Shown here: piece by piece, positions 28,370-53,768 of the stretch
Numbering within the stretch: position 1 is the first letter of the stretch
Layout of the letters: every line of letters begins with the position of its first letter
From: Desulfobacterales bacterium
GTDB lineage: Bacteria > Desulfobacterota > Syntrophobacteria > B119-G9
Assembly: GCA_026983715.1 (NCBI GenBank)
Contig: JALSTM010000077.1
Span: 304-64,303, forward strand
Length of the DNA stretch: 64,000 nucleotides
Direction: 5' to 3'
Translations under genes and position numbers: made by a program
The notes under the pieces: model-generated
Told to the model about the DNA's origin: nothing
Seen by the model: only the letters and a program-made list of their open reading frames with translations
Databases searched by the model: none

Positions 28370-28428
28370 TTATTGTTATGCCTATTAAAAATGCTAGAAA
28401 CTAACCTTACGTTTCCTGTGTTAGAAGT

Positions 28429-32220: not shown

Positions 32221-34456
32221 TTTCCTGTTCCCGTATCATTTCATCAAGGTAGGATTCTGAAAGCAATCCCAGCCGAACGAGAAGTTCTCCGAATTTTGGA
32301 GTTTCGAGTTCCTGGTGTTTCAATATATGTTCTAAATCTGACCTGGTTATCAGGCCCTTTTCAACCAGATATTCACCAAACCGAACCCTCTCCACTGCTT
32401 CATCAAGGTATTCATCCAGTGCTGACTTGAGTTCCTCACGCGTTACGAGTCCTTTATTTACAAGGATTTCCCCCAGGCGCTTATATGCCTTTTTTTGCAT
32501 TCGTGCAGCTTTGCGAAGGTCTTCTTCCGCTACTTTTCCTCGCCTGAGAGCAATTTCTCCGATCCTTGACCTGGGTTGCTTTTTCGTTAATCTTTCGTAT
32601 CCTTTCCGAATAGCGAGACTTATGTCTCCATGTGTGACGAGCTTTAGCACTATGGGCTTTCCCACCTGGTTTTCCAGTTCCGATAAAACCTCCCTTGGAA
32701 GAAGGGTTTCCGTGCCTACCTCTATTGCCCCTTTACTGGAAATTCCTATAGGGAAGACGCTATATTTGATTGCGAGCCTTCTGGGGAATTTTTTAAGGAG
32801 GTCAAGCGGGGTTTTATAGGGGTCGATTTCAGCGATTTCAAGGCCAAACTGTTGTCCCAGGGCTTGGAGCAAAATGTTTTCTGATACAAATCCCATATCC
32901 AGGAGAATTTTCCCGAGAAGCTCTTCTTTTTCCTTTTGTATCATAAGGGCTTTTTCAAGTTGACCGAGGGTTATAAACCGTTTTTCTATCAAAAGGTCTC
33001 CTAGGCGCTGTCGGTAACCTCTGAGTTCTTCCTCGGTGGGATAAACGTGTTCTGTCTTCTCCCAGGGAATAATTTTTCCTGTTGCCTTGTACCTTGCGTA
33101 AATCCAGATTGCTCGAATAGTTGCGAAAAAATTTACACAGTTTGACCACGGAAGGCGAGGTATGGCCAAGAGTGCCTGTGCAGGCCCGTACATGTTCCAC
33201 ACGCAGCAAACCCTCCAAGTTAATCTCCAGCAAAGGAAAAAGAGGTTAATCAGAAGGAGAGTCCAAAGTAGTGTGCCAGGGGAAATCAAGGGAGGATAAT
33301 GGTAAGCGGAAGGGTTTTTCCACTCGTAGATAAAGAGGCCTATTATAAAAATTGCAAGCACATTTCCCAGCAGGTTAATCTGGTTGGTGATGAGAGACTT
33401 TCTATCCCGATAGAGCATAAACTTGTTCATGAAACTTCCGTACCAACCAACATAAGACCATCCCTGCAAGGCGATTCCAACGACCCAGCGGGATTTCTGT
33501 CTCACTGCATCCGTAAATCTTTTCGGAAAAAATTCCTGTACCGCTATGTACTCCTTCTTTTTTTTCTTTTGGATTTTTCCATTTCTCGGGAGCGTGATTT
33601 CTCTCTCAATGGCTTTCCTGACAAAAATCTGCTCCAGGTTAAACTCGCCCATCTCGAGACCCAGTTCGTAGTCTTCGGCGAGAGAGTGTACGTTTAGAAT
33701 TTGGCCCCTGTTCTTTTCCCGCAGTAGTTCAACGGTTCTTCTGCTAAGCGCTGTGCCGACACCGGCAGAAGGCAGTATTTTGGTTAAACTTTCCCGGACC
33801 ACGAGATCACGGGTATGGTTTTCTGCAAATTCGTCCAAGTAATGGTTTCTCGTAAACTGATACCATTCCCCTGCAATCGGTAAAACCGGAAGCTGGATCA
33901 TGTCCTTGCGAGGAATTAGGTAATTGAAAAGTTTAAGAGTCAAGGGATGTAATATGTCTTCTGCGTCTTCTATCACGAAAATCTCGAACTTCCTGTCATG
34001 TTCTTTTTCGTATACCCGGATTCCTTCAAACACCCAGTTTAGACAGTCCGCTTTGTTCGTAGGACCATTCTTAGGGCAGGTTATGCGCTCTACGTTGTCG
34101 TAATGCTCGCGGACAATATCTATTTCTTTTCTTGTTTCCGGGTCATTGGGGTAGGTGCCCACAAAGATTGTATAGTTACTATAGTTTAGGGTCCTTAATG
34201 TGTTTTCAACCATGTTCCTAATAACAGCACTTTCATCCCAACAGGGGATCAAGATTGCAACCGGTTTCTCAGGAACACCCTGCAACTGCCTTTCATCTAG
34301 TGGTTTGTACTTTTTCATCACGAAGAACTTCCTGTATAGAGTCCTAAATATCCAGTACAGATCGATGGATAGTTCCTCGATTCCGTTCCACGTAAAGACT
34401 ACTCCGCAGACTATCAGGAGTATCTTGGTAGCTAGTAGTATATAAGCCATGATCAT
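32213..34456 (-). CDS. NfrB-like inner-membrane family-2 glycosyltransferase (EPS synthase) with C-terminal GSPII_E_N/MshEN c-di-GMP-binding domain and four further tandem MshEN motifs
   Basis: N-terminal TM, GT2 core (ILIPCWDE...DAED...), 4-6 TM block, then 'RLGDLLIEKRFITLGQLEKALMIQ' plus 'RIGEIALRRGKVAEEDLRKAARMQ', 'RLGEILVNKGLVTREELKSALDEY', 'RFGEYLVEKGLITRSDLEHILKHQ', 'KFGELLVRLGLLSESYLDEMIREQ'; 747 aa versus 745 aa for E. coli NfrB. Confidence 0.75.
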   Translation of the reverse strand: MIMAYILLATKILLIVCGVVFTWNGIEELSIDLYWIFRTLYRKFFVMKKYKPLDERQLQGVPEKPVAILIPCWDESAVIRNMVENTLRTLNYSNYTIFVGTYPNDPETRKEIDIVREHYDNVERITCPKNGPTNKADCLNWVFEGIRVYEKEHDRKFEIFVIEDAEDILHPLTLKLFNYLIPRKDMIQLPVLPIAGEWYQFTRNHYLDEFAENHTRDLVVRESLTKILPSAGVGTALSRRTVELLREKNRGQILNVHSLAEDYELGLEMGEFNLEQIFVRKAIEREITLPRNGKIQKKKKKEYIAVQEFFPKRFTDAVRQKSRWVVGIALQGWSYVGWYGSFMNKFMLYRDRKSLITNQINLLGNVLAIFIIGLFIYEWKNPSAYHYPPLISPGTLLWTLLLINLFFLCWRLTWRVCCVWNMYGPAQALLAIPRLPWSNCVNFFATIRAIWIYARYKATGKIIPWEKTEHVYPTEEELRGYRQRLGDLLIEKRFITLGQLEKALMIQKEKEELLGKILLDMGFVSENILLQALGQQFGLEIAEIDPYKTPLDLLKKFPRRLAIKYSVFPIGISSKGAIEVGTETLLPREVLSELENQVGKPIVLKLVTHGDISLAIRKGYERLTKKQPRSRIGEIALRRGKVAEEDLRKAARMQKKAYKRLGEILVNKGLVTREELKSALDEYLDEAVERVRFGEYLVEKGLITRSDLEHILKHQELETPKFGELLVRLGLLSESYLDEMIREQENE

Positions 34457-35673
34457 AAATTCAATTTCAGTTTCATATTGGTTTCTGTCTTCCCAGTTCG
34501 TCGAGAAAAATCAGGAGATGAAAATTGCTCTTCAGCCTCAAGCAGGGGAGCGACTCCACGACTAAACCTTTCGATGGCAAGCCTTATGCGCCTACTTGCA
34601 TGTCCGTCACCAAAGGGGTTAGGCATATCGAAACAACGAAAACGCTTCTCGGTATCCAGAATCTTCATCACTTCTTCGACGATTCTTTTCCTGTTTCTCC
34701 CTGCCAAAACACCACGATTTTGATATATAATTTCAGGACGTTCAGTGTGATCCCTCAGTATTACTAAGGGCACGTTATAATATGTTGCCTCTTCCTGTAT
34801 TCCGCCTGAATCTGTCATTGTGAGAGTTGAGTTCTTGAGCGTGTATAACGTGTCCGGGTAATCCAAAGGTTCCAGGAGGTGAACTCTCCTGTTTGGCTCT
34901 AGAATCGATTTCACAGTTGCTCTAACCCTCGGGTTCATGTGTAGCGGGAAAATAAATTCGACATCAGATCGAAGTGAGCTTATTTCATTTATGGCATCGC
35001 AAATATTGCGGAGAGGCTGCCCCCAGGATTCCCGACGATGAGATGTTACGAGTATAATCTTATTGTTACCCTGGCTTAGATTATGGATAAATCTTTTGAT
35101 GTTCACCGATGCAAACTTCTCCATCTTTTTGATAGCATCTATGACCGGATTGCCGGTCACATAGATGGTGTCTTCAGGAATTCCTTCGGTTAAGAGGTTT
35201 TTCTTAGCTGTAAGAGTTGGTGCAAGGTGCACACTTGTAATGGTACTTATTAGCTTCCTATTTCCTTCCTCGGGATAAGGACTATACAAGTTGTGTGTAC
35301 GCAAGCCGGCTTCAACGTGAAATACTGGGATCTTGCAATAATAGGCTACAAGGGCTGAAGCGAACGCACTGGAAGTATCTCCCTGCACAAGAAAGATATC
35401 AGGTGCTAAATCCGCTATAGCAACATCCATTTTCATTGTAATTCGCGAGATAATCTGGTTGAGTGATTGTTGATGTTCCATGATTCCAAGATCTATGTCG
35501 GGGGTTATGTCAAAGACTTTTAAAATGCGTTGTAACATGTCGTTGTGTTGCCCCGTGGTTACAACAAGCGTTTGAATGTCTCCAGATTCTTTCAGGGCTT
35601 TAATTACAGGACCCAGTTTTATCGCTTCGGGCCTGGTGCCGACGGCAACAAGAATTTTTGGTAGAGTGGTCAT
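34453..35673 (-). CDS. wecB: UDP-N-acetylglucosamine 2-epimerase (non-hydrolysing), WecB/MnaA (NfrC equivalent)
   Basis: 'KILVAVGTRPEAIKLGPVIKAL', 'HVEAGLRT', 'DSGGIQEEA' motifs; 4-nt overlap (ATGA) with the downstream GT2 gene. Confidence 0.9.
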   Translation of the reverse strand: MTTLPKILVAVGTRPEAIKLGPVIKALKESGDIQTLVVTTGQHNDMLQRILKVFDITPDIDLGIMEHQQSLNQIISRITMKMDVAIADLAPDIFLVQGDTSSAFASALVAYYCKIPVFHVEAGLRTHNLYSPYPEEGNRKLISTITSVHLAPTLTAKKNLLTEGIPEDTIYVTGNPVIDAIKKMEKFASVNIKRFIHNLSQGNNKIILVTSHRRESWGQPLRNICDAINEISSLRSDVEFIFPLHMNPRVRATVKSILEPNRRVHLLEPLDYPDTLYTLKNSTLTMTDSGGIQEEATYYNVPLVILRDHTERPEIIYQNRGVLAGRNRKRIVEEVMKILDTEKRFRCFDMPNPFGDGHASRRIRLAIERFSRGVAPLLEAEEQFSSPDFSRRTGKTETNMKLKLNL

Positions 35674-36204: not shown

Positions 36205-36783
36205 ATGTTAGAAGCTCTTATAACATCCAAAACACGTCTCCGTGTTCTAATGCGTTTGTTCTTAAATCCTGAACAAGAGGTGTATATAAGGAAACTTGCC
36301 TCCGAGTTTGGAATATCATCAAATCTTGCAAGCGAAGAATTTCATTCGCTAAGCAAGGCGGGATACCTCGTTAGCAGAAAAGACGGAAGGCAAATATTTT
36401 ATCGAGCAAATACTAAGCACCCTCTTTTTCCGGAAATTCATTCAATGGTAAGAAAAGCCATTGGGGTTAAGCATATCGAGGAAATTATTTTGAAAAAACT
36501 GGGCAACGTTGAACAGGCTTTCGTTGTCGATGACTATGCTGAGGGAAGAGATACGGGAGTTATTGATTTGGTTATAGTTGGTGATATTAATAGAAGTAAT
36601 CTGAACAACTTGGTAGAAAAGACCGAAAGGCTCATTAAAAGAAAGATACGTTCACTAGTGCTGGATAGAAAAGAATTTTTGAACCTAAAAACATATTTTG
36701 CCGATAGGCCAAAGTTGACGCTTTACCCTTTGGGTTTTGAGTCCCTGGAGATCCCTTCTGGAGAAATCACGCTAAACGCTTAA
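36205..36783 (+). CDS. Winged-HTH (ArsR-like) regulator fused to a nucleotidyltransferase-like domain
   Basis: N-terminal wHTH (IRKLASEFGISSNLASEEFHSLSKAGYLVSRKDGRQIFYR); C-terminal 'GVIDLVIVGD' Pol-beta-like NTase signature. Confidence 0.5.
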   Translation: MLEALITSKTRLRVLMRLFLNPEQEVYIRKLASEFGISSNLASEEFHSLSKAGYLVSRKDGRQIFYRANTKHPLFPEIHSMVRKAIGVKHIEEIILKKLGNVEQAFVVDDYAEGRDTGVIDLVIVGDINRSNLNNLVEKTERLIKRKIRSLVLDRKEFLNLKTYFADRPKLTLYPLGFESLEIPSGEITLNA

Positions 36784-37511
36784 GGAGGGTTGGATTTTCG
36801 GTCTTGAGATTTGGGTGGAGAAATGAGTCTAAGTTTGCAAAATTCTTCGCTTTTCTGTGCCTTGGCGGGAGAAAGACATATGCTCCCGTAGAGACGCGGA
36901 GCTGCCGCGAATACACTAAGATAATTTAATTTATTTCGGTAAACGTTTTATTCTCGGAAATTCCTGGAAAGGCGTTAAATATACTGCTGAAGGGATATTA
37001 AAGTTTATTTAACTGGGATAAAGAGGTAAAATTTTTAGTAAAGGAATTCAATTTCAAGCTTTTATGATGTTTAAGCTATTCCGGGATGTCGTAGGAATAC
37101 CAGTGGTTTTTGGTGAAACTATCAAGAAAATCACCGCATAAATTTCCAATGTCAACATTTGACCTCGTGACCACCATGAGTAAAAAGCATGGAAAAAGAG
37201 TTTTGGATAAAGCACCCTTTGGAAACATGTCGATTCTTGAGAAGAGGGGGATTTAATTATTTTCCCGCTGAAACCAGTAAGCACAATTGGAAGGTGCAAT
37301 CCGTCTGATAAAAGGCTTTGTTAAGCTGTGTGAGATCATTCTCAGTTTGATGAGAGGAGCAAGGGAGGTCTTCTGGTTGTTTAAAACAGGAAGTGTTGAA
37401 AGAAAGCTAAAGCTTTTTACTCAACTCATTCAGGGTAAAGTTCTAAGGCAGCAAAGCCGCAACCAAAACCCAGGACAAAGATTGATGGTTTCGTAAAAAG
37501 TCCAAAAACCG

Positions 37512-37804
37512 GTCATTGCGAGGATCCCAAACCCACTTTATGACAATGTTTTCGGCTTAATTTCAAGATGTATGGTTTAAAGTGGGTGTGGGAGACGCGG
37601 CAATCTCATCAGCAAGAGATTGAGGATTAGGGATGAATCAGCTTCTGGTTTACTCCTTAATCCATCAATTCTTACCCCGGTCTTGCCCCCATAATCATTG
37701 AGATTGCTTCGCTTCGCTCGCAATGACAAAACAGGAGATTTTTTGCGATACTGTCAGGATTAAGACACGCTAAAGCGTTACATGTTTATAGGGAAGTATT
37801 CTAA
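37512..37804. repeat. Copy B of the MITE-like intergenic repeat (TIR gtcattgCgag/ctcgcaatgac, core 'gagattgcttcg', 41-nt module in forward orientation), longer than copy A
   Basis: See copy A; 37764-37804 'gacacgctaaagcgttacatgtttatagggaagtattctaa' is the reverse complement of 10572-10612 (about 36/41 identical). Confidence 0.6.
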
Positions 37805-38173
37805 CAATCAAACTTGACATTCTGAGCAGTGTGCAAAACCAAGGGTTTAATTTCAAACTTGTAGTTATTAGTGTTTTTGGTAGAATCGTGGATAAATTAA
37901 AAAGACACTGATAAGTTGGGGCTTATAACACCAAGAATTAATTAAAACAAGTAGGACAAGAACAATTCAAAACCGTGATTCAGGTAGGAGCGAAACGTAA
38001 GGCCAGAATCTACCACTCTCCGGCTGGATGCGTGGTAGAAGCCTGCCCCTGATTGAATCAAGGGGGCTGGCATTACGTACAAAAGGCCATATGGCTATCT
38101 GAAGATTTAATCGGAGGGTCCTCAACATATAAGGTAATTATCGAGGTGTAAAAAAGATCGTCTTTATAACGTC

Positions 38174-39271
38174 ATGAGATCTTACTTCAAAGACAAACGT
38201 GTTCTTGTTACAGGAGCTTGCGGAACTGTTGGTCGTGAGCTTGTCCGTCAGTTGTTGGAAAACTACGGCGTCAGCGAACTTGTTGCTCTTGATAATAATG
38301 AAACCGAACTTTTTATTCTTGAAGAACGTCTTTCAAGTTATAGTAATAGTTCTTTCTTTTTAGCCGACATCAGAGACCGTGACAAACTTTGCCGCAAAAT
38401 GCAACACATGCATATAGTCTTTCATACTGCTGCATTTAAACACGTTATCATGTGTGAACGTTCACCTTTCGAAGCGGTACAAACTAATATCCTTGGTGTC
38501 AACAATATCATTTATGCGGCCTTAGAAAACAAAGTTGAACGGGTAATTTTTACAAGCTCAGATAAAGCGGTAAACCCAACAAACGTCATGGGAACTTCCA
38601 AGCTTATGGGTGAGCGTCTTATGACTGCAGCTAACGGTAATCTGCGAGATGGGCGTCAAATATTTGCTTCAACCCGGTTTGGAAATGTGTTGGGTTCCCG
38701 AGGTTCAGTGATACCTATTTTCCGTGAGCAAATTCGACGAGGTGGCCCTGTAACTCTAACGGATCCATCGATGACGCGGTTTATAATGAGCGTGCAAGAG
38801 GCAGTGAGGTTGGTTATTGAATCAACCTTTCTTGCAAGAGGTGGAGAGGTTTTTATCACCAAAATGCCAGTGATGCGAATACAGGACCTTGCTAAGGTCA
38901 TGATAGAGGAATTGGCTCCGGTTTATGGGTATCACCCGGACGAGATAGAAATAAAGCTGATCGGTGTAAAAGCGGGCGAAAAAATGTACGAGGAACTCAT
39001 GAACCATGAAGAAACAAGAAGAGCAGTGGAACTAGAGCGTTACTTCGTGGTTTTACCCGCATTCACAGGTCTTTACCGCAAAATAGATTATTCATATCCT
39101 ACTACTCTTTCTACCCATGTAACAAATCCTTATAATTCCGCAATTGAAAAGCCTCTTTCAGCCGACGAACTTCGACACTTTCTCGTAGAAAACAAACTCT
39201 TAGAGGAAGATTTGTACACTTATCGTCATCCTGCAAGACGTTATTGGCCGAACGAAAAAGAGGGTCAATGA
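38174..39271 (+). CDS. UDP-GlcNAc 4,6-dehydratase, PseB/FlaA1/CapD family (extended SDR)
   Basis: 'VLVTGACGTVGREL', 'DKAVNPTNVMGTSKL', 'RFGNVLGSRGSVIPIF', 'MTRF' match the PseB/FlaA1 pattern. Confidence 0.8.
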   Translation: MRSYFKDKRVLVTGACGTVGRELVRQLLENYGVSELVALDNNETELFILEERLSSYSNSSFFLADIRDRDKLCRKMQHMHIVFHTAAFKHVIMCERSPFEAVQTNILGVNNIIYAALENKVERVIFTSSDKAVNPTNVMGTSKLMGERLMTAANGNLRDGRQIFASTRFGNVLGSRGSVIPIFREQIRRGGPVTLTDPSMTRFIMSVQEAVRLVIESTFLARGGEVFITKMPVMRIQDLAKVMIEELAPVYGYHPDEIEIKLIGVKAGEKMYEELMNHEETRRAVELERYFVVLPAFTGLYRKIDYSYPTTLSTHVTNPYNSAIEKPLSADELRHFLVENKLLEEDLYTYRHPARRYWPNEKEGQ

Positions 39272-39323
39272 AGTATTCTTGAGAGCTACTAGGAGTGGTT
39301 CCCGTCTACTCAGAGGTGGTTTT

Positions 39324-40514
39324 ATGAAAAAACACATACTTATACTTGGCGGTGATGGCTATCTCGGTTGGCCCACTGCCATGTATTTCTCTAACCGAGA
39401 TTATAAAGTAACAGTTGTAGATAACTATTTCCGGAGAAATGCTTGTACGGAACTTGACGTGGGCATGCTTTACCCGGTGCCGACTTTGATTCAGCGTGCC
39501 AAAATCTGGTATGATCTCACAGGAAAAGAGATAAAAGTGGTGATCGGTGACCTTACCGATCCTGAACTTATGCGGGCACTATTTGATGGTACCATAGTTT
39601 ACAATTGGGCTGTCAACCCCGAGTTTACCGGGGTGCCGGAGACTGTCATTCACTATGCCGAACAACCCTCTGCTCCCTATTCCCTTATTAATTACAAGTA
39701 TGCAAATATAACTATCAAAAATAATCTCTTGGTAACTAACAACCTTATGTTTGCTGTTCGCGATTATTCTTCTGATACTCATATCATAAAGCTAGGCACC
39801 ATGGGAGAGTACGGAACGCCAAACATTGACATAGAAGAAGGGTGGATTGAAATTGAGCACAAAGGTCGCAAGGATAGGTTCCTTTTTCCTCGCCAGGCCA
39901 GTTCGCTTTATCATACCACTAAAATAATGGATACAGATCTTCTTTGGTTTGGTGTAAGAATGTGGAATCTGCGTGTTACTGACCTTATGCAAGGTCCGGT
40001 TTACGGAATAGAGACGGAGGAATCAAAACTAGATCCGCGTTTACGCACCCTTTTCAACTATGATGAAATTTTCGGTACAATACTTAATCGTTTCATCGTG
40101 CAGGCTGTGGTGGATTATCCTTTAACTGTCTATGGAAAGGGAGGACAGACTCGTGGTTATCTGAACATCAATGATACGCTACAGTGTGTCCACATGTCAG
40201 AAATAACTCCGGCTCAACCTGGTGAACTTCGCATTTTTAACCAAATTATGGAAACTTTTTCAGTTAATGAATTGGCTGAAAAAGTTTGTAACGTGGGCAG
40301 ATCTCTTGGGTATAATGTCCGGGTCAACCATATCGATAACCCCCGTAAAGAAGCTGAAGATCATTACTATAATCCGACGTATCAAGGTTTAATAGAAATC
40401 GGAGTTAAGCCTCACTATCTCACCAAAAAAGTTTTACTAGAAATGTTCCAAATAGTTGAGCAGTACAAGGAGAACGTTAGAACTGACGTTATTTTTAGAG
40501 GGATTAAGTGGTAA
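39324..40514 (+). CDS. sqdB: UDP-sulfoquinovose synthase homolog (SQD1/SqdB/Agl3 family); start at the ATG with RBS (MKKHILILGGDGY)
   Basis: About 400-aa extended SDR; recalled SQD1 blocks 'GGDGYxGWxTA', 'KLGTMGEYGTPNIDIEEG', 'LTVYGKGGQTRGYL', 'FSVNELA', 'NPRxEAEEHYYN' all present. Confidence 0.75.
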   Translation: MKKHILILGGDGYLGWPTAMYFSNRDYKVTVVDNYFRRNACTELDVGMLYPVPTLIQRAKIWYDLTGKEIKVVIGDLTDPELMRALFDGTIVYNWAVNPEFTGVPETVIHYAEQPSAPYSLINYKYANITIKNNLLVTNNLMFAVRDYSSDTHIIKLGTMGEYGTPNIDIEEGWIEIEHKGRKDRFLFPRQASSLYHTTKIMDTDLLWFGVRMWNLRVTDLMQGPVYGIETEESKLDPRLRTLFNYDEIFGTILNRFIVQAVVDYPLTVYGKGGQTRGYLNINDTLQCVHMSEITPAQPGELRIFNQIMETFSVNELAEKVCNVGRSLGYNVRVNHIDNPRKEAEDHYYNPTYQGLIEIGVKPHYLTKKVLLEMFQIVEQYKENVRTDVIFRGIKW

Positions 40515-40648
40515 TTTTAGCAATTGATAAATGGTTATACTCTGATGAAGGTAGTCCCCGGTACGGGTAAGCAATTTGTAAATCTTGTCATGCCATACTA
40601 ATGAATGGTCTCTTTTGATTGATAGTGATCAACCGGATAGTTGGTTAA

Positions 40649-41950
40649 GTGGACTTTGCGCGTAAAGTTGTTAATACGGCGGGTGCAACATTCATTGTTC
40701 GCATATTGGGTTTGGCTGGATCTGTTGTGCTCGGCCGATTACTTGGACCTGAAGGACTGGGAGTATACAGTATACTCCGGGCTATTCCATCTTTCCTTGT
40801 GGCTTTAACATGTGTGGGACTACCAACTGCCGCAGTCTACTACGTTTCTCGCGAACCACAAAATCGACCTCAGATAACTGCGACACTATTCTTTTATGCT
40901 ATAGTATGTGGAAGTATTATCGCCATAGGGCTCTGGATTTCGAGTCCCCTTTTAAATAAGCTCTATTTCAAAGGAGTCTTGAAAGGCTCTTATTTTGTGC
41001 TTCTTAGTTTCCTTGTGCCTTTTATGCTGTTTGTGAGGCTCGGAAGTGCAATACTGCAGGGACTGTATCGGATTACGGAACGAAATGGTGTGGAGATCCT
41101 CCTCCGTACCGTTCTAATACTAGGTTATTTGGCGCTAGTATGGCTGGTAAAGTGGCACATTTTTGGTGCGTTAACAAGCTTAGTTATAGCTCATTGTTTA
41201 ACTGCATTTTACGTTCTATTTTTTGTTAGGCGTGATATAAAATTTACTGTTAGCCGAAATTTCGCAATAATACGTCGTATGTTCGGATATGCCCTGTCGG
41301 CCTTCCTTGGACAGTTTCTCGAACAGATGGAGGGAAATATCATCTTCTTAATACTCGGAATGTTTATCGAATCGGCAAGTCTTGGCTTATTTGCCGTAGC
41401 AATAGCGCTTGGTGGCTTTGTATTATTTCCAAGTACCGCTATAGCGAGACCAATGCTTCCGAGACTAGCGCGAATGGATGAGAAAGAAGCTGGTCGCGCA
41501 TTTATTCAAGTGATACAGGTCGGTCTGATTCTATCCACCCTCACAGCAGTTGCTGTTGTTGTAATTGCACCATATGCGGTTCCTTTGTTGTATGGTTCAA
41601 AATTCAATGGCGTCACAAGAATATTGATCGTCTTGCTTCCGGGGTTTATAGCAGGGGCAATGTTGAGCTTTGTTAGGGTGTATTTTTTGAGTACCGGGAA
41701 ACCCCTCTGGAGAATGTACATGAGCATGTTTAGAGCTGTGTTACTGTTGGTCTCAATCGTAGTGGGAGGAATCAGTGGGGGAATACTCGGGGCGGCAATT
41801 GGTATGACGGTGGGGTTGATTATCACCTTGTTCGGAGCCTTGTGTTTTATTTTTTGGTATAATCCGATTATTGAGTTTCGAGATATGATAGTTGCCTGGA
41901 CAGCAACTGTAACCTATGTCAAGGCATTTATCGGCAGTAGAAAAAGATGA
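40649..41950 (+). CDS. Polysaccharide biosynthesis flippase (MOP/Wzx family)
   Basis: 433 aa, about 12 TM; N-terminal 'VVNTAGATFIVRILGLAGSVVLGRLLGPEGLGVY' typical of PF01943/Wzx proteins. Confidence 0.7.
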   Translation: MDFARKVVNTAGATFIVRILGLAGSVVLGRLLGPEGLGVYSILRAIPSFLVALTCVGLPTAAVYYVSREPQNRPQITATLFFYAIVCGSIIAIGLWISSPLLNKLYFKGVLKGSYFVLLSFLVPFMLFVRLGSAILQGLYRITERNGVEILLRTVLILGYLALVWLVKWHIFGALTSLVIAHCLTAFYVLFFVRRDIKFTVSRNFAIIRRMFGYALSAFLGQFLEQMEGNIIFLILGMFIESASLGLFAVAIALGGFVLFPSTAIARPMLPRLARMDEKEAGRAFIQVIQVGLILSTLTAVAVVVIAPYAVPLLYGSKFNGVTRILIVLLPGFIAGAMLSFVRVYFLSTGKPLWRMYMSMFRAVLLLVSIVVGGISGGILGAAIGMTVGLIITLFGALCFIFWYNPIIEFRDMIVAWTATVTYVKAFIGSRKR

Positions 41951-42054
41951 CTGAAGCCATACGTAACTAAAATGGCAACTTCTGAAAAAAGACTGAAGCT
42001 TCGGACTGACGGTTTTTTGTTGAGAACTTCACAGGAAAGAAATGTGTTAAGTGT

Positions 42055-43113
42055 ATGGAAACGGTGGGAATAGATCCAAGAAGCTACAAACACATCTATG
42101 TTTATGGTACTCCTAGAGGTGCAACTAACCTTTTTTGCGCATTACTTCATAATCATACAAATATAGTTGCTATTAATCATAGATCGACGAGAAAGTATCT
42201 CAATCATTTAATAGAAACGAAACGATCGGCTGAAAGATCTCACTGGTTATTCAATATAAAGGACCTAATTTATGAAAAAGGTGGCCCAGCAAAAGATTTT
42301 ACGTGCATTTCTTATATCCTGTTTGACAAGGTTCACTGGGCATCTGATCGTGCCTTTCAACATGTTGAACTCACCCTGTCACGAGTTCGGTCTGGTCTTG
42401 CTGATGGTATCGTCCTAATCCGCCATCCGCTTCAGGTCCTAAAATCAATGGACAATTTCCACCGACGTTACGGACGTCCCAGATGGGCTCTTACACGCTT
42501 CAATGTACTTCGTTACTTGGTGCAGTATTTTTTACCCCAACTGTGGCTTCTAAAAATTAAGGGAATATATGGAATTGTAGTAGAAGCTTTCGTTAAGAAT
42601 TTGCCTTATAGTTATCGGGATCTATGTGAAAAACTCGGGATACCGTTTGAACTTAGATTTGCTGATTTTCGCTTGACTTTTGAGGATGCGCTAACATGGA
42701 CAGGTGGTAAGTTTGTAATACGGAAATCTGAAGTTGTGGGGGGAGGTTCGTTCTTGACCTCCAAAAGTATAAAAGCACCTGCTCAAGATGTTTATTTTGA
42801 CCCGATAAGCGGTGAGCCCACGTGGGGTTATGGCCAGTTTAATCCTGCGTTACCATTAAATCCTGAAAGACTAATGAGAAGTAATGAGAATTTTGATTTA
42901 CCTACTAGCAGCCTCATTAGGGAAGTATTCTGTAAAGGAATTTCAAAAAAAGATGTGGATTACCTTTTTGAAACAAGATTGTTGGACGTCGAAAGGCTTC
43001 GGGAGTTTGACATGAAGGGAATCGGAAACATTATGTTTCATCTGTTGAATCGATTTCCGCCACCGAAGTGGTTGCAATGGTCCTGGAAATATTTGCGTTC
43101 AAGACCTTATTGA
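42055..43113 (+). CDS. Putative sulfotransferase-fold protein
   Basis: Possible 5'-PSB P-loop 'YGTPRGATNLF' and 3'-PB-like 'LIRHPLQVLKS'; no TM; sits between the flippase and the NeuB-like gene. Confidence 0.4.
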   Translation: METVGIDPRSYKHIYVYGTPRGATNLFCALLHNHTNIVAINHRSTRKYLNHLIETKRSAERSHWLFNIKDLIYEKGGPAKDFTCISYILFDKVHWASDRAFQHVELTLSRVRSGLADGIVLIRHPLQVLKSMDNFHRRYGRPRWALTRFNVLRYLVQYFLPQLWLLKIKGIYGIVVEAFVKNLPYSYRDLCEKLGIPFELRFADFRLTFEDALTWTGGKFVIRKSEVVGGGSFLTSKSIKAPAQDVYFDPISGEPTWGYGQFNPALPLNPERLMRSNENFDLPTSSLIREVFCKGISKKDVDYLFETRLLDVERLREFDMKGIGNIMFHLLNRFPPPKWLQWSWKYLRSRPY

Positions 43114-43190: not shown

Positions 43191-43997
43191 ATGGAGCTTA
43201 TAGCGGAAATAGGTTGGAATCATATGGGGGATTTCCAACTGTTAAAGAAGATGGTAAGAGCAGCGGCTGAAGCGGGTGCTACATATGCTAAGTTTCAAAC
43301 ATGGAGAGTAAAAAATCTCAAGCCTGGTCCATGGGACGAGGATGGACGTAGAGATATTTATAAAGCCGCTGAGCTAACGACGAGTGATTTTTTTAAAGTT
43401 AAGAGAACTTGTGAAGAACATGGTGTTAATTTTCTGACCAGTGTTTTTAATCCGGAAGATTTAGAAGATATGGCCCGTGTATCAGACGAAGCCATAAAGA
43501 TTCCCTCTCCAGAGGTCGCAAATATTCCTCTTTTGGAAGGAGCCGGGAAATTGTTCAAAAAGGTTTACCTTTCAACCGGTGCTAGTACTGAAGAAGAATT
43601 AGACCAAGCGATTGATATACTTAGATCTTTAGACTGCGAGTTAACGTTACTTCATTGTGTTTCTATCTACCCGTGCCCTGATGATAAAGTTAATCTCCCG
43701 AGGATCAAAAGACTAAAAGAGAAACATTCTCGGGTGGGTTTTTCCGATCATACTCCCGATAATTTGAGTGCTCTGTTCGCTATTGCACTGGGAGTTGACT
43801 GCATCGAGAAACACTTCACCATTGATAAAAACCTCCCGGGCAGGGATAATCGTTTCGCCCTGTTGCCTGATGAGTTTAAAGCTATTGCAGATGCTGCAGC
43901 TCGTTATGAGCTCATGTCACATGACTTAGGTCTCGAATTTCAACCTGAAGAAAAAGAACAGCGTGAAATCTATCGGGGTAGATGGAGTGGGAGGTAG
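43191..43997 (+). CDS. NeuB/PseI-family sugar-phosphate (PEP) condensing synthase, TIM-barrel only, lacking the C-terminal SAF domain
   Basis: 'IAEIGWNHMGDFQLLKKMVRAAAEAGATYAKFQTW' N-terminal signature of the N-acetylneuraminate synthase family; 268 aa versus about 340 aa for canonical NeuB. Confidence 0.7.
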   Translation: MELIAEIGWNHMGDFQLLKKMVRAAAEAGATYAKFQTWRVKNLKPGPWDEDGRRDIYKAAELTTSDFFKVKRTCEEHGVNFLTSVFNPEDLEDMARVSDEAIKIPSPEVANIPLLEGAGKLFKKVYLSTGASTEEELDQAIDILRSLDCELTLLHCVSIYPCPDDKVNLPRIKRLKEKHSRVGFSDHTPDNLSALFAIALGVDCIEKHFTIDKNLPGRDNRFALLPDEFKAIADAAARYELMSHDLGLEFQPEEKEQREIYRGRWSGR

Positions 43998-44003
43998 AAC
44001 CAC

Positions 44004-45275
44004 ATGTCGAGAAGAAACCCCAAGGTTACTATAGTTGTGCGCGCCAAAAATGAAGAGTTCTGGATAGGGAAGACGCTTGAACAGATAAACCGCCAGACGT
44101 TCCAGGATTTAGAGGTTGTCCTCGTAGACAGTGGGAGTACGGATAGCACCGTTTCAATCTTTCGCAATTATCGACCAAAAGATTCAGTAGTTGATTTGAA
44201 GGACTTTAAGCCGGGGAAAGCCATCAATGTTGGTATTGAGGCCGGTAGAGGTGAACTGATAGTTGTGCTTTCAGCTCACTGTGTACCGGTGGATGAGAAT
44301 TGGCTTGCTAGCTTCATAAAAGTTATGAAAAACGAAAAAGTGGCAGCTGCATATGGCAGACAACTTCCGTTGCCCTCTTCACACCCGCTGGATAAGCGAG
44401 ATTTACTGAACATTTTTGGTATTGAGGCAAAAATCCAGAAAAAAGACACGTTTTTTCATAACGCAAATAGTATAATTCGCCGTGAGATTTGGGAGCAGGT
44501 ACCCTTTGATCCAGATGTTTCTCACATAGAAGATCGTTTGTGGGCTCAAAAAATTATTTCTATGGGCAAGTACATCGCTTATGAACCAGATGCGGCTGTT
44601 TATCATCACCATGGTATTAATCATTACTCTGACCTCAAGAGAGCAGAAGTCATTTCTGATTTGCTTGTCCGCAGTACCATGATCAATGGCAATGAATATC
44701 CTGAATATTTGAAGCCCGAAAATGAACCAATCCTCTTCTGCTTGTTAGGGCATAACCGAGATGTTCACGATCGGTATGTTCCTATTATTCAACAGGTTTC
44801 AAAGAAATTTCAGAAATCAAAAGTCCTAGTTAATACCCGTGTTCCAGAAATGCTATCGGATTATGATGTTATAGCAGTACCTAGACTAGATAGTGAAGAT
44901 CATCTGACTTTTGTGGACATATTGGCAAAAATGATGAATTGTGCGCATTTAGATGGTTTCTTCCCAAATTGCATCGTGTATCTTAACCCAAAGCTTGAGG
45001 GTTTGAATGTAGATATGGTCCATGATTTGGTAGTTCAGTATTATAGAGGGATGTATGATTCCGTCTTTTTTGCCAGGGAAGAGTATAATAATTTATGGGT
45101 AAAAAAGGGAGATACTTACAAGCAACTTATGGCGGATTACGCTCCTAGAGCAGAAAAAACGCCTATACTTGTGGCTCAATATGGATACGGAACAGCTACG
45201 AAGCCACAGTTTATCAGATCACGTGATTTTGTTGGTCCCAAGGTTGGGATTATCCGTATCAAGGAGGCAAGATGA
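44004..45275 (+). CDS. Family-2 glycosyltransferase with about 200-aa uncharacterised C-terminal extension
   Basis: GT2 N-terminus 'VTIVVRAKNEEFWIGKTLEQINRQTFQDLEVVLVDSGSTDST', DxD-like 'EDR'; C-terminal half has no recognisable motif. Confidence 0.7.
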   Translation: MSRRNPKVTIVVRAKNEEFWIGKTLEQINRQTFQDLEVVLVDSGSTDSTVSIFRNYRPKDSVVDLKDFKPGKAINVGIEAGRGELIVVLSAHCVPVDENWLASFIKVMKNEKVAAAYGRQLPLPSSHPLDKRDLLNIFGIEAKIQKKDTFFHNANSIIRREIWEQVPFDPDVSHIEDRLWAQKIISMGKYIAYEPDAAVYHHHGINHYSDLKRAEVISDLLVRSTMINGNEYPEYLKPENEPILFCLLGHNRDVHDRYVPIIQQVSKKFQKSKVLVNTRVPEMLSDYDVIAVPRLDSEDHLTFVDILAKMMNCAHLDGFFPNCIVYLNPKLEGLNVDMVHDLVVQYYRGMYDSVFFAREEYNNLWVKKGDTYKQLMADYAPRAEKTPILVAQYGYGTATKPQFIRSRDFVGPKVGIIRIKEAR

Positions 45276-46000
45276 TAAACGGAAAAAAAGTTTTGGGTAT
45301 AACATTGGCGCGGGGTGGCTCAAAATCTGTTCCAAAAAAGAACATACGTCCCCTTGCGGGTAAACCGCTCATCGCTTACACTATTGAGGCTGCCTTATCC
45401 TCTTCCTACCTTGACGACTACATCGTGTCCACGGAAGATCAGGAAATTGCAGATATTTGCTCAGATCTTGGAGCACGAGTACCATTCCTGAGACCAGTAG
45501 AACTTGCCTCAGATACAGCTTCCTCGGCGGATGCCCTTTGCCATGCTGTTGATTTCGTTGAGCATGAACGTGGTGAAAAATTTGATTATGTAATTGAACT
45601 TATGGCTACAAACCCTTTCAAAACGTCATTGCAGATTGACAAGGCATTGGAAAAGTTGGATGAGACGGGAGCTGATTCAGTTATAGCGGTGACCCGCGTT
45701 TGGGATTATCATCCGGCGAGAATTAAAAAACTGGATGATAAAGGCCGTTTGGTAAATTTTTGCGTACCAGAACCTTTGGAGGCCCGCAGACAGGATCTAA
45801 CACCGCCAGCATATATCAGATGCGGATCTATTTACGCGTTGCGACGTGATTATTTAATGACTACTAAAACGCGCTACGGGTCAAAAGAATCGTACGCACT
45901 AGTAGTTCCCGAAGAAGAATCAATCAATATTGATAACGAATTTGACTTTGCTCTTGCTGAGATCATTATTGAAAAGAGAAAGAAAATTGCAGGTGGATAA
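45272..46000 (+). CDS. CMP-nonulosonate (acylneuraminate) cytidylyltransferase family protein (NeuA/PseF/LegF-like)
   Basis: 'LGITLARGGSKSVPKKNIRPLAGKPLIAYTI' CTP_transf_3 signature; 4-nt overlap with the upstream GT2. Confidence 0.8.
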   Translation: MINGKKVLGITLARGGSKSVPKKNIRPLAGKPLIAYTIEAALSSSYLDDYIVSTEDQEIADICSDLGARVPFLRPVELASDTASSADALCHAVDFVEHERGEKFDYVIELMATNPFKTSLQIDKALEKLDETGADSVIAVTRVWDYHPARIKKLDDKGRLVNFCVPEPLEARRQDLTPPAYIRCGSIYALRRDYLMTTKTRYGSKESYALVVPEEESINIDNEFDFALAEIIIEKRKKIAGG

Positions 46001-46007
46001 TTGAAAA

Positions 46008-47030
46008 ATGGATATTCAATACAAACGCTGGAAAGCATTTGCGAGTTTCGTATCCCAATACCGTGAAGATGGTCATTATTCTTCTCTTTGGTCGGAGTTT
46101 ATCCGTGACTTCACCATAGAGCCTGGTGAATTCAAGGAGGTAAATAAGTTCATTCAAAAAAATTGCCGGGGCTATAGTTTCCTTGATAGCCCATCAGTTT
46201 TCCCTAAGTTTAGAGATGCCACTGAGCTCACATTCGGGCTTGCCGTCCACATAATTGACTCTATTTGGCGCCGGCTTCTGAGCGCAGCCAGGAGTAATAG
46301 GTTGGGGAGGCAATTAGATTGGCGTACATATAAAGTGTATGCTTTTTTGCGAAAAAACGGCATCAAAATTGATGATTACCTGGGGCCGGTTTCAAGAGTT
46401 CACCCAGTACGTATAAGCTATAATTCTTTAAAAACAGTTTATTTTGCTCATAAAGTATTTTCCAACTGCGCCTTCGATAATGATCGAAGAAATTTCTTTC
46501 TGGAAGTAGGTGCAGGAGCAGCTAACTTTCTTATCATTACAGCTTTCCGCTTTTCAAAACTCAGTTACTACGTTGTAGATCTTCCTGAAATGCTCTTAGT
46601 ATCATCGTTTGAAACATTAAAGCACGTTCCGGGTGCGCACATTTATATGCCAAATGATGTGGAAAACGGTGTCTTAGAACAACCACTTCGTGGAGACAAG
46701 AATTTTATTTTTTTGACCCCGTCGCAAATAGGAAGAATTCCTAACAACAGTATCGACTTAGCTCTGAACATAGAATCTTTCGCAGAAATGCCACAGAATG
46801 TAGCTGAAAGTTACATTGACTTTTTCTATCGCATACTTAAGCCTGGTGCTTATATGTTCACAGCCAATCGCGAATCAAGGATCATTTCTGAAAATGGTAG
46901 TTTCACATGTTACTGGAAGTTACCGTATTCTGACAAAGATAAAATAATTTTATGGGAATACTGCCCCATGCGGCAGTTTATGATGAACGGGATGTCCCCG
47001 AATATTAACAGGCTCGCTCGCGTGCCATAG
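46008..47030 (+). CDS. Putative SAM-dependent (sugar O-)methyltransferase
   Basis: Class I MTase motif I 'FLEVGAGAANF', acidic motif II 'YVVDLPE', downstream 'NIESFAEMP'. Confidence 0.45.
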   Translation: MDIQYKRWKAFASFVSQYREDGHYSSLWSEFIRDFTIEPGEFKEVNKFIQKNCRGYSFLDSPSVFPKFRDATELTFGLAVHIIDSIWRRLLSAARSNRLGRQLDWRTYKVYAFLRKNGIKIDDYLGPVSRVHPVRISYNSLKTVYFAHKVFSNCAFDNDRRNFFLEVGAGAANFLIITAFRFSKLSYYVVDLPEMLLVSSFETLKHVPGAHIYMPNDVENGVLEQPLRGDKNFIFLTPSQIGRIPNNSIDLALNIESFAEMPQNVAESYIDFFYRILKPGAYMFTANRESRIISENGSFTCYWKLPYSDKDKIILWEYCPMRQFMMNGMSPNINRLARVP

Positions 47031-47068: not shown

Positions 47069-48025
47069 ATGAGTAAAATGTATAAGCTTCTTGTCATCAC
47101 ACCTATAGCCCACATAAAGGGACTTAGGCATAAGTTAGCCTCTTGTTTTGATTTAATTGAGTACCCCGATCCTGTTTTTGACGATATTAGAGAAACCTTG
47201 CCTGCTATTGACTCCGTTTTCACAAATCCTAACAAATCAAAGGTACCGATTGATAGGCACTTTATGAGTTTGGCCAAGAACCTTAAAACCATTGCTACAG
47301 CCTCCACCGGGCTCATACATATTGACATGGAGGAGGCTCGGCGACGAGGTGTCAAAGTCATTTCTCTTACCAGAGAAATCGAAACAATTGAAAAAATTAG
47401 CTCTACGGCAGAACATGCTCTGGCATTAACATTGTCCGCGTTGCGTCGGATACCTTGGGCTTTTGAGGATGTTCTAAATGGAAACTGGGACTATGAAAAG
47501 TTCATAGGCCGACAGTTTGACTATTTAACTGTAGGAGTAATCGGCTGGGGACGTCTGGGGAAAATGTATGCTCGCTATGTCCAGGCACTCGGTGCGAAAG
47601 TGTTGGTCTGTGATCCAGCTTACACAGAGAAACAATGCCCGTATGCTTTGGTGGATCTGCAAGATCTGGTGCGACGCTCTGACATCATCTCCATACACAT
47701 CCATGCAACCCCTGAGAACATCGGCTTATTCGGGAAACAGTTGCTGTATTTAGCCAAGCCAGATGTGCTTATAGTCAACACCTCCCGCGGTGAGATTATC
47801 GACGAGCCGGCCATGGTCGAGTTTCTGGAAACCAATCCAAAAGCTATGTTGGCCACTGATGTGCTTGCCGATGAACTCAAGCATAAGTGGGGAAGTCCGA
47901 TATTCGATCTGGCCAAACGCGGTGGTAACGTCCTCATCACTCCACACATCGGCGGCATGACGCGGGAAGCGCAGGAGATTGCTTACCATCGTGTAGCAGA
48001 TATGCTTATCGAGTTCTTCGAATGA
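47069..48025 (+). CDS. D-isomer-specific 2-hydroxyacid dehydrogenase (NAD-binding)
   Basis: 'VGVIGWGRLGKMYARYVQALGAKVLVCD' Rossmann; catalytic R/E/H pattern ('TSRGEIIDE', 'ITPHIGG'). Confidence 0.8.
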   Translation: MSKMYKLLVITPIAHIKGLRHKLASCFDLIEYPDPVFDDIRETLPAIDSVFTNPNKSKVPIDRHFMSLAKNLKTIATASTGLIHIDMEEARRRGVKVISLTREIETIEKISSTAEHALALTLSALRRIPWAFEDVLNGNWDYEKFIGRQFDYLTVGVIGWGRLGKMYARYVQALGAKVLVCDPAYTEKQCPYALVDLQDLVRRSDIISIHIHATPENIGLFGKQLLYLAKPDVLIVNTSRGEIIDEPAMVEFLETNPKAMLATDVLADELKHKWGSPIFDLAKRGGNVLITPHIGGMTREAQEIAYHRVADMLIEFFE

Positions 48026-52993: not shown

Positions 52994-53138
52994 AGCTTTG
53001 AAATCGAAATGATATGGTTGGCAGATAACAGAGAAAGGAGGTAACACAATTTGAGTTATCGCAACGATTACTTCAAAAATTGAGAGTTTCAAAAAGACAT
53101 GAATGCGTGGTGGAGAATATTTGGGAGGTGAGTATAAA

Positions 53139-53768
53139 ATGTCGGAGGAACATTATGTAGAATCAGGGAAAAATTGCCTATTCCAACATGGTGTGGTGTT
53201 AGGGCTGCGTTATAAAGAAGGTTGTTCTCCGTTTAGAGTCGGTAATGGAGCGTGTATTCGTACCGGCACAATTATTTATGCTGACGTAATTGCAGGGGAC
53301 GATTTTCAAACGGGGCACAACGTTCTAATTAGGGAGAAAACTGTTTTCGGCAATCATATTGTAGTGGGTACTAATACAGTTATTGATGGGCACGTGACAA
53401 TAGGTGACTTTGTGAAAGTAGAATCAAATTGTTACATACCCACCCATGTAACTATTGGCTCTCGTGTATTCTTTGGACCGGGTGTGATCCTTACCAACGA
53501 TCGATATCCTCAAAAGATGAGAGATCAATATCGACCTGAAGGACCAGTAATTGAGGACGGAGTAACACTGGGTGCCGGTGTGGTAGTTTTGCCGGGAGTA
53601 ACAGTAGGAAAAGGTTCTTTTGTCGCTGCAGGTGCAGTGGTAACAAAAGACATCCCCTCCATGAGTTTTGTCAAAGGAATACCTGGTAAAATTTCTTCCC
53701 TACCGGACAAATTGAGGGAGTTCAATATGGCTAAAAACTGGAGGAAGTACCTGAATGAAAAAGATTAG
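53139..53768 (+). CDS. Left-handed beta-helix (hexapeptide) sugar N-acetyltransferase, WbpD/PglD-like; start at ATG 53139 with RBS GGGAGGTG
   Basis: Repeated [LIV]GxxxxI hexapeptides ('IGDFVKVESNCYIPTHVTIGSRVFFGPGVIL...GVTLGAGVVVLPGVTVG'). Confidence 0.8.
   Translation: MSEEHYVESGKNCLFQHGVVLGLRYKEGCSPFRVGNGACIRTGTIIYADVIAGDDFQTGHNVLIREKTVFGNHIVVGTNTVIDGHVTIGDFVKVESNCYIPTHVTIGSRVFFGPGVILTNDRYPQKMRDQYRPEGPVIEDGVTLGAGVVVLPGVTVGKGSFVAAGAVVTKDIPSMSFVKGIPGKISSLPDKLREFNMAKNWRKYLNEKD

Follow-up and report, generated by a model that had tools for sequence, protein, structure and literature searches.

A proline-101 branch of the SQD1 family paired with a Pen-like dehydratase in a surface-glycan locus: a candidate route to a sulfonated amino sugar

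Production of sulfoquinovose (SQ) is attributed to phototrophs, with a few rhizobia and Sulfolobus besides, and the SQ synthase is treated as a marker gene for sulfolipid. The described synthases are SQD1 in Arabidopsis, SqdB in cyanobacteria, Rhodobacter and Sinorhizobium, and Agl3 in Sulfolobus. In a 2026 review of SQ cycling, SqdB is treated only as a sulfolipid enzyme. The subject of this report is a homolog of these synthases (39324-40514) encoded on a 64-kb stretch of DNA from a Desulfobacterales bacterium (GenBank assembly GCA_026983715.1, contig JALSTM010000077.1, positions 304 to 64,303), the whole of which is called the window below, together with the dehydratase gene directly upstream (38174-39271). 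Two other groups of described enzymes bear on this gene pair, namely Pen and Pal of Bacillus thuringiensis, responsible for the first two steps of CMP-pseudaminic acid synthesis, and the 4,6-dehydratases FnlA/CapE and PglF/WbpM. The explanation that we favor, tentatively and with rather less than even confidence, is that the two genes form a conserved two-enzyme cassette making a C6-sulfonated UDP-amino-sugar for a Wzx/Wzy-assembled surface polysaccharide.

An SQD1-family enzyme with proline at position 101

The open reading frame (ORF) 39324-40514 (+ strand) encodes 396 amino acids from an ATG preceded by the Shine-Dalgarno-like sequence AGAGGTGG; a longer TTG start at 39279 is possible, and the ATG is the start used by gene callers and homologs. 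The window ORFs were Pfam-scanned and scored against NCBIfam models. The protein matches Arabidopsis SQD1 (PDB 1qrr) over residues 3-396 (E 6e-118), with 46% identity over the full length by BLASTP, and it matches the NCBIfam UDP-sulfoquinovose synthase model NF041015 with 400.4 bits (E 7e-120), short of the equivalog cut-off of 575. The GalE model gives 21.7 bits, and the dTDP-glucose dehydratase model likewise about 22 bits. A preliminary description of this DNA, made from the sequence alone, had recognized an SQD1/SqdB homolog from four hallmark blocks, and had named best matches of the GalE type as the outcome that would speak against it. The assignment holds, the best matches being of the SQD1 type, and three of the quoted blocks are present (GGDGYLGW, KLGTMGEYGTPNIDIEEG and LTVYGKGGQTRGYL), while the fourth reads NPRKEAEDHYYN, one residue off the quoted NPRxEAEEHYYN.

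The SQD1-type signature combines [ST]-M-G with a later Y-x3-K, in which a His follows the Tyr (PMC8987622). In the window protein it is read as GTMGEYG and SSLYHTTK, downstream of an N-terminal GxxGxxG (GGDGYLGW), so that the catalytic T-M-G and Y-H-x2-K residues, which had been singled out for checking, and the NAD motif are intact. The conserved positions, in SQD1 numbering, are H96, T145, M146, G147, E148, Y149, S180, Y182, H183, K186 and Q209. By these features of its sequence, 39324-40514 is a genuine full-length SQD1-family enzyme that retains the catalytic set. As shown below, it is a non-canonical relative of the UDP-sulfoquinovose synthases.

More than 8000 database proteins match 39324-40514 at E <1e-20; the best 120 show 80-85% identity, and the named ones among them belong to metagenome-assembled genomes (MAGs) of Desulfobacterales or Deltaproteobacteria. 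Scanning the GTDB with one genome per species gave 590 relatives; the 80 best were analyzed and aligned with SQD1 and with canonical SqdB genes from annotated records (S. meliloti sqdB-sqdD, Marinovum sqdB-sqdD-sqdC, Microbulbifer sqdB with a glycosyltransferase family 1 (GT1) gene, Rhodococcus, Agrobacterium and Pseudonocardia). Two groups can be told apart among these 80, a long form (about 393 amino acids, 67-81% identity to the window protein) and a short form (about 380 amino acids, 57-65% identity). The long form carries a 13-amino-acid insert (residues 94-106 of the window protein, 39603-39641 in the window) about 10 residues before Pro101, which is conserved in the long-form subclade (Y-N-W-x-V-N-P-x-F-T) and missing from both SQD1 and the short form.

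At the position of SQD1 Arg101 the window protein has a Pro (EQPSAPYS, versus EQRSAPYS in SQD1). Pro occupies this position in 82 of 82 sampled clade members, and Q-P-[SA]-A-P-Y-S is read in 118 of the 120 best database matches to the window protein; Q-R-[SA]-A-P-[YF]-S is read in all 120 best matches to the canonical profile, which come from plants, algae and Rubrobacter. Arg101 is kept in SQD1, in S. meliloti SqdB and in the Marinovum, Rhodococcus, Agrobacterium, Microbulbifer and Pseudonocardia proteins. In a neighbor-joining tree, the 82 Pro101 sequences form one clade (mean pairwise identity 67%) with zero Arg101 sequences inside and with the long form as a subclade. Its sister is the SQD1/Rubrobacter/Pseudonocardia group, and it lies nearer to SQD1 than does the validated S. 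meliloti SqdB. Clade members are named UDP-sulfoquinovose synthase by JGI and generic NAD-dependent epimerase/dehydratase in NCBI-sourced records.

SQD1 Arg101 presumably aligns with Lys84 of E. coli GalE and Gly102 of WbpP in the wall of the sugar pocket, a lead rather than a test, and epimerases specific for UDP-Glc and for UDP-GlcNAc differ in the pocket wall at that position. Searches of the E. coli genomes (blastn) and of PLSDB plasmids (tblastn) detected no member of the Pro101 clade, and therefore provide no link to a known O-antigen structure. In Agl3, the R101A variant is inactive, in an assay scored on the conversion of UDP-glucose to UDP-glucose-5,6-ene (PMC4388408).

Linkage to a Pen-like dehydratase

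The 365-residue product of 38174-39271 belongs to the Polysacc_synt_2 family (PF02719, 326 bits; gathering score 20.2). The PseB and FnlA models score 269.5 and 217.9 bits, below their respective cut-offs of 407.75 and 730. Its best PDB match is 6BWC (E 2e-82, 280 bits), followed by FnlA, CapE, PglF and FlaA1 (191-208 bits); 6BWC is Pen of B. thuringiensis, a UDP-N-acetylglucosamine (UDP-GlcNAc) 5,6-dehydratase (PMC8987622). The catalytic [ST]-D-K and [YM]-x3-K motifs are present as TSSDKAV and NVMGTSK, and every Pen-like partner that aligns there likewise has S-D-K and M-x3-K. To our knowledge, all characterized members of the family act on UDP-GlcNAc.

Pairing of the two genes was surveyed in 81 related loci by tblastn of the window proteins. 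A homolog of the 365-residue dehydratase (45-73% identity) lies directly upstream, with a gap of at most 400 nt, in 61 of the 81 loci; it is found 0.4-3 kb upstream in seven, downstream on the same strand in four and elsewhere in one, is absent despite room in five, and in three the contig is too short to tell. Carriers of the cassette belong to the Desulfobacterota, the Gamma-, Alpha- and Betaproteobacteria, Campylobacterota, Brocadiia, Leptospirales and Myxococcota, and include Pseudomonas, Halomonas, Gilvimarinus, Allochromatium, Cocleimonas and Thiothrix among the Gammaproteobacteria, as well as Rhodoferax and Sulfurovum. The identity matrices of the SQD1 homolog and the Pen-like protein correlate (Mantel r 0.31, reached by none of 2000 permutations). 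The dehydratase had been called PseB-like and treated as a neighbor unrelated to the SQD1 homolog, a view that does not fit a clade tied to a Pen-like gene across many phyla. In the canonical Arg101 contexts (sqdB-sqdD-sqdC, sqdB with a GT1-family gene, and Rubrobacter), no Pen-like gene lies beside sqdB.

Apart from the Pen-like gene and a generic downstream short-chain dehydrogenase/reductase (SDR), the neighbors are not conserved across the related loci. Among 128 neighbors sampled from 80 loci, GT4 and GT2 glycosyltransferases, methyltransferases and DegT aminotransferases dominate, with frequent occurrence too of UDP-GlcNAc 2-epimerases, UDP-sugar dehydrogenases, sulfotransferases, flippases and Wzz. 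The cassette was also considered as the start of a pseudaminic or legionaminic acid pathway, and this was rejected as a general explanation because NeuB and cytidylyltransferase homologs occur together within 10 kb in only about eight of 80 loci. The downstream SDR, an extended type of about 330 residues (SSGA...PYGASK, GalE/RmlB-like), is present in about 30 of 80 loci, where it adjoins or runs into the stop codon of the SQD1 homolog (e.g. L006, 11176-12159; L031, 11179-12162; L077, 11146-12153). It scores below every equivalog cut-off, and the window lacks it. The pathway may have in it a third enzyme, which could act as a 4-epimerase on the cassette product.

Two complete cassettes occur together in one MAG of an uncultured Desulfovibrio sp. 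(CAJXYU01; L028 and L078), one with a long-form SQD1 homolog (74% identity to the window protein) and the other with a short-form one (57%). An apparent Pen-SQD1 fusion ORF of 734 residues (L063) was set aside as a spurious out-of-frame extension in a genome of 69% GC, in which only residues 355-733 find a match, to SqdB. Outside the Pro101 clade, a canonical Arg101 SqdB with 69% identity to SQD1 is encoded by Rubrobacter xylanophilus (AP019791.1; L095, 1131-11812) and in locus L093. It adjoins a TMEM260/PMT_2-type GT-C glycosyltransferase, a DUF2304-GT2 protein, a flippase-like gene and BacA, a context that suggests SQ on a glycoconjugate, not a lipid, in an actinobacterium.

A proposed two-enzyme route and its alternatives

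Given the loss of Arg101 and the linkage to a dehydratase, the product of 39324-40514 is probably a GlcNAc-derived analogue and not UDP-sulfoquinovose itself. Agl3 releases UDP-glucose-5,6-ene, which accumulates as a free intermediate and is then converted with sulfite to UDP-sulfoquinovose (PMC4388408), which means that a free 5,6-ene can be handled by enzymes of the SQD1 type. What Pen makes is the N-acetyl analogue of this intermediate, and a division of labor between the two window enzymes is therefore proposed. From the homology, the retained catalytic residues, the clade-wide change of Arg101 to Pro, the pairing and the glycan context, we infer a substrate, an order of steps, a use of sulfite and a product as follows. 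The Pen-like SDR would oxidize UDP-GlcNAc at C4, eliminate water across C5-C6 and release UDP-6-deoxy-GlcNAc-5,6-ene, as Pen does. The SQD1-family enzyme, with its bound NAD+, would re-oxidize C4 to give the 4-keto-5,6-ene, add sulfite to C6, reprotonate C5 and reduce C4, yielding UDP-2-acetamido-2,6-dideoxy-6-sulfo-D-glucose (UDP-6-sulfo-QuiNAc), and a glycosyltransferase of the locus would place 6-sulfo-QuiNAc into the repeat unit. With such a cassette, the pairing, the retained SQD1 catalytic residues, the disappearance of a residue that the UDP-glucose half-reaction requires, and the glycan context would all be explained. Sulfite handling is part of the energy metabolism of many of the named carriers, which fits the proposal and proves nothing. 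In loci that, like the one in the window, also contain a NeuB-like synthase, it is pure speculation that the sugar feeds a 9-sulfo ulosonic acid.

Several observations weigh against this proposal. In the Pen-like partner, a Met stands where Pen has its catalytic Tyr, an arrangement shared with CapE, FnlA and PglF, and the enzyme may therefore be a 4,6-dehydratase instead of a 5,6-dehydratase. The type of dehydration is not readable from sequence, and a review of these enzymes gives no sequence determinant for the product type, ascribing the difference between Pen and TunA to nicotinamide geometry (PMC8987622). In five of the 78 informative loci there is no Pen-like gene within 10 kb of the SQD1 homolog. 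A haloarchaeal SQD1 homolog (Haladaptatus salinisoli plasmid; L089, 3995-7777), which adjoins GT4 and WecB genes and lies outside the bacterial Pro101 clade in the tree, has Pro101 without a Pen-like neighbor, a caution that Pro101 alone is no proof of dependence on a partner. If Arg101 binds sulfite in SQD1, its loss would argue against sulfite chemistry. A sulfite-supply gene was not found in the window, and a sugar of the 6-sulfo-QuiNAc structure was not found in a full-text literature search.

The family resemblance itself would allow another account, in which 39324-40514 is a plain UDP-sulfoquinovose synthase that turns UDP-glucose together with sulfite into UDP-sulfoquinovose for the polysaccharide, and the Pen-like gene serves to make another sugar of the same glycan. 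The 46% identity to SQD1, the retention of all known catalytic residues except R101, the JGI naming, the position of the clade, which is nearer SQD1 than that of the validated S. meliloti SqdB, and the five loci missing the Pen-like gene would all be expected of such an enzyme, but not Pro101 throughout the clade, given that Agl3 R101A is inactive on UDP-glucose (PMC4388408). Nor would two independent pathways be expected to stay adjacent and in the same order in many phyla while the other neighbors change, and with a score below the NCBIfam equivalog cut-off as well, we consider this account fairly unlikely. The pairing could also come from a sequence of steps without sulfur, as in the Pen-Pal precedent, where a 5,6-ene is passed to a second SDR (PMC8987622). 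Recruited into second place in a 6-deoxy-HexNAc pathway, 39324-40514 would then be a functional analogue of Pal (a 4-oxidase, 5,6-reductase and epimerase that uses the 5,6-ene), or else it would epimerize or reduce a 4-keto-6-deoxy sugar; the third SDR directly downstream in about 30 of 80 loci could be the final reductase or epimerase, and the loss of the active-site Arg would match the loss of an anionic co-substrate, if Arg101 bound sulfite. Strong conservation of SQD1-specific sequence (67% clade identity; M146, E148/Y149, H183) is, however, unexpected for a mere reductase or epimerase, the PDB search of 39324-40514 revealed no similarity to Pal or to known 4-reductases, and many carriers are, from general knowledge, sulfate reducers, sulfur oxidizers or anammox bacteria, which handle sulfite. 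A pathway of this kind is accordingly judged unlikely.

A third account retains the 4-keto-5,6-ene and replaces sulfite by a thiol, an amine or phosphite, which would add to C6 by Michael addition to give a non-sulfonate 6-substituted 6-deoxy-HexNAc. The sole clade-specific change in the active site does remove a cationic residue, and the long-form subclade has its additional conserved 13-residue insert near the Arg101 loop, but nothing positive favors another nucleophile and no conserved neighbor would supply one, making this very improbable. Returning to the sulfonating cassette, its more specific form, that the Pen-like gene and the Pro101 SQD1 homolog represent a widespread undescribed bacterial pathway to UDP-6-deoxy-6-sulfo-GlcNAc (N-acetyl-sulfoquinovosamine), with the work of SQD1 split between a 5,6-dehydratase and a sulfite-adding enzyme, is put forward as a possibility, with more reserve than the cassette as such.

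What appears to be new is an SQD1-family enzyme whose active site is altered and whose UDP-GlcNAc dehydratase partner looks obligate. Full-text searches of the literature yielded no SQ-bearing bacterial polysaccharide, no N-acetyl-sulfoquinovosamine and no account of this gene pair. A large share of the 'sqdB' matches in non-phototrophs represents a distinct clade, which is especially common in Desulfobacterota metagenome genomes. If the proposal is true, a nucleotide sugar and a class of sulfonated glycans from bacteria would be new additions, with surface polysaccharides of sulfate reducers, sulfur oxidizers and many other Gram-negatives carrying a C-S-bonded sulfonated amino sugar. Surveys that use sqdB as a marker would have to be read differently, a so far unrecognized organosulfonate pool outside the sulfolipid of phototrophs would be available as a new substrate for sulfonate-degrading microbes in sediments, and the cassette would amount to a natural experiment in which the SQD1 reaction is split over two enzymes.

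The glycan locus, its sulfotransferase module and known systems

The cassette heads a run of genes on the + strand that extends from 38174 to at least 63417 and contains the following features.

38174-39271, +: Pen-like UDP-GlcNAc dehydratase (Polysacc_synt_2), with S-D-K and M-x3-K motifs
39324-40514, +: SQD1/SqdB-family protein of the Pro101 clade, long form with the 13-residue insert; proposed C6-sulfonating enzyme, from homology, residue 101 and phylogeny
40649-41950, +: Wzx-like flippase of the multidrug/oligosaccharidyl-lipid/polysaccharide (MOP) type (Pfam Polysacc_synt_3, 4.7e-20; Polysacc_synt, 8e-16)
42055-43113, +: divergent 3'-phosphoadenosine 5'-phosphosulfate (PAPS)-type sulfotransferase, 352 residues, head of a six-gene module (family profile, motifs, predicted fold)
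43191-43997, +: short NeuB-like phosphoenolpyruvate-condensing synthase, 268 residues (Pfam NeuB, 4e-59; NCBIfam NeuB and PseI models below cut-off)
44004-45275, +: GT2-domain protein, 423 residues (Pfam Glycos_transf_2, 5e-21)
45272-46000, +: PseF-like CMP-sugar cytidylyltransferase (CTP_transf_3, 2e-24; PseF model 162 bits, below the cut-off of 206)
46008-47030, +: NanM-like sugar O-methyltransferase (TIGR04371, 67 bits, above the cut-off of 44)
47069-48025, +: D-2-hydroxyacid dehydrogenase family protein (Pfam 2-Hacid_dh_C, 1.4e-38)
48022-49089, +: Acyltransferase_3 O-acyltransferase (PF01757, 5e-23)
49244-50326, +: possible CMP-sugar-dependent glycosyltransferase, weakly polysialyltransferase-like (Pfam A-2_8-polyST, 3.9e-6, 27.1 bits)
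50446-51807, +: Wzy-like polymerase or O-antigen-ligase-like membrane protein (Pfam Wzy_C, 2e-5, below the gathering score)
51797-52993, +: GT4 glycosyltransferase (Pfam Glycos_transf_1, 4.5e-23; no similarity to the sqdX-like reference)
53103-55916, +: amino-sugar tailoring trio of a hexapeptide acetyltransferase, a GFO/IDH/MocA oxidoreductase and a DegT aminotransferase
55953-57170, +: WcaI-like GT4 glycosyltransferase
58407-59099, +: initiating polyprenyl-phosphate sugar-phosphate transferase (Bac_transf; Pfam 3e-62; NCBIfam EPS_sugtrans 236 bits, below the cut-off of 295.55)

The locus also contains one methyltransferase and two more aminotransferases. A thiamine pyrophosphate-dependent E1 alpha/beta pair of the acetoin/pyruvate dehydrogenase type (59118-61077) lies between the initiating transferase and a DegT aminotransferase, and may provide a two-carbon branch or an acyl group on a sugar. 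The Wzx-like protein, the Bac_transf protein and the GT4 and GT2 proteins in one same-strand cluster make up a Wzx/Wzy-type locus, in which the polymerase call is weak, its Wzy_C match being below the gathering score. A search of the whole window for homologs of the sqdX-like, sqdD and sqdC references found none, and there is no sulfite-supply, sulfate-activation or PAPS-supply gene among its Pfam-scanned ORFs.

By Pfam, the dehydratase and Wzx flippase flanking the SQD1 homolog are as the preliminary description had them, and the sqdX/sqdD-type gene that it reported missing from the immediate neighborhood is missing from the window as a whole; the sulfite or PAPS supply genes that it had suggested looking for did not turn up. 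Its proposal of SQ in a polysaccharide rather than a lipid stands in part. Because of the Wzx/Wzy-type context and the lack of a lipid sulfoquinovosyltransferase in the window, a glycan-borne sulfonated sugar is the sensible reading, and the sugar is probably not SQ itself, given the Arg101 loss and the dehydratase linkage. The additional sulfate ester on SQ, which it considered possible, is not indicated, since it is with the downstream module of NeuB-like synthase, cytidylyltransferase and methyltransferase that the sulfotransferase shares synteny, and not with the SQD1 homolog.

The 352-residue protein encoded by 42055-43113 has no Pfam match of its own (Sulfotransfer_3, 15.4 bits, E 0.023; gathering score 27) and only three close relatives of it were found in a set of 5.8 billion proteins; an exhaustive profile search retrieved 40 representatives of the family among 1.8 billion. 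In a 30-sequence alignment, R21, G23 and N25 of the 5'-phosphosulfate-binding motif (5'-PSB; PRGATN, P-R-x-G-x-N) are nearly invariant, and R123 and S131 of the 3'-phosphate-binding motif (3'-PB), eight residues apart, are invariant. Sulfotransfer_3 is matched by 25 of the 30 family members (best E 3.8e-19), and the family profile matches the CurM sulfotransferase domain (E 1.5e-13) and TPST2 (3e-7). An AlphaFold2 model built on this alignment has a predicted local distance difference test score (pLDDT) of 90.7, versus 38 with a four-sequence alignment, and its top 45 Foldseek matches in the PDB are all PAPS sulfotransferases, led by TPST1 (E 5e-6, probability 1.0, template modeling (TM) score 0.37-0.47). 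By its motifs, family profile and predicted fold, the protein is a divergent PAPS sulfotransferase, in agreement with the preliminary call of a sulfotransferase-like gene.

Its closest homolog (60% identity) heads an identical six-gene run, in the order sulfotransferase, NeuB-like synthase, 423-residue GT2-domain protein, cytidylyltransferase, NanM-like methyltransferase and 2-hydroxyacid dehydrogenase, on two metagenome contigs (L091, 4319-10402; L092, 5232-11315; 42055-48025 in the window). Because of this shared order, the sulfotransferase is assigned to the NeuB-like module and not to the SQD1 homolog, and the module resembles a route to a CMP-activated ulosonic acid that is modified (methylated or sulfated?). 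Genes of the Sulfotransfer_3 type, of another family than that of the window, lie within 10 kb of the cassette in 16 of 80 loci, mostly of the long-form subclade (e.g. L013, 8631-9908; L011, 9414-10658; L012, 12962-14428), a count with which no background rate was compared.

Ahead of the locus, a small winged-helix-type regulator gene (36205-36783) precedes 1.4 kb (36784-38173) that hold no + strand ORF of at least 80 residues, no Rfam family and no prominent consensus signal. Over the window, the Rfam scan gave no match, and promoter and terminator scans did no better than on shuffled sequence. On the minus strand, 26234-35673 encodes a second, divergent exopolysaccharide system with WecB (above the NCBIfam cut-off), a 747-residue GT2-MshEN fusion, a 1263-residue TPR/NfrA_C protein and a DUF4434 protein; the MshEN domain is one that we take to be of the cyclic di-GMP-binding type.

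Among described systems, the Sulfotransfer_3-type PAPS sulfotransferases (the CurM domain and TPST1/2) share with 42055-43113 the 5'-PSB and 3'-PB motifs and the predicted fold, and differ from it in that the window protein is very divergent and has an extra C-terminal region of about 120 residues. The dehydratase has in common with FnlA/CapE and PglF/WbpM the Polysacc_synt_2 family and the arrangement of S/T-D-K and M-x3-K, but is less similar to them (204-208 and 196 bits, respectively) than to Pen (280 bits), and the usual partners of FnlA and PglF (FnlB/FnlC and PglE/PglD) are not the conserved neighbor here. The organization parallels that of Pen and Pal, in that after a Pen-like SDR comes another SDR, which is presumed to use the released product. 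In contrast to that pair, the second enzyme here is of the SQD1 family rather than Pal-like, and the Pen-like protein has Met for the catalytic Tyr; most related loci lack a NeuB/PseI-type synthase, so the cassette is not a nonulosonic acid pathway in general. With SQD1, SqdB and Agl3, the window enzyme shares the fold, the length class and the GxxGxxG, T-M-G, E-Y, S, Y-H-x2-K and Q209 elements, and probably also the chemistry of oxidation, 5,6-ene formation, sulfite addition and reduction. It differs from them in the Pro that replaces Arg101, in the 13-residue insert of the long form and in a score below the NCBIfam equivalog cut-off, and it is found not beside sqdX, sqdD, sqdC or an agl1-type transferase, but in a polysaccharide locus, linked to a UDP-GlcNAc dehydratase.

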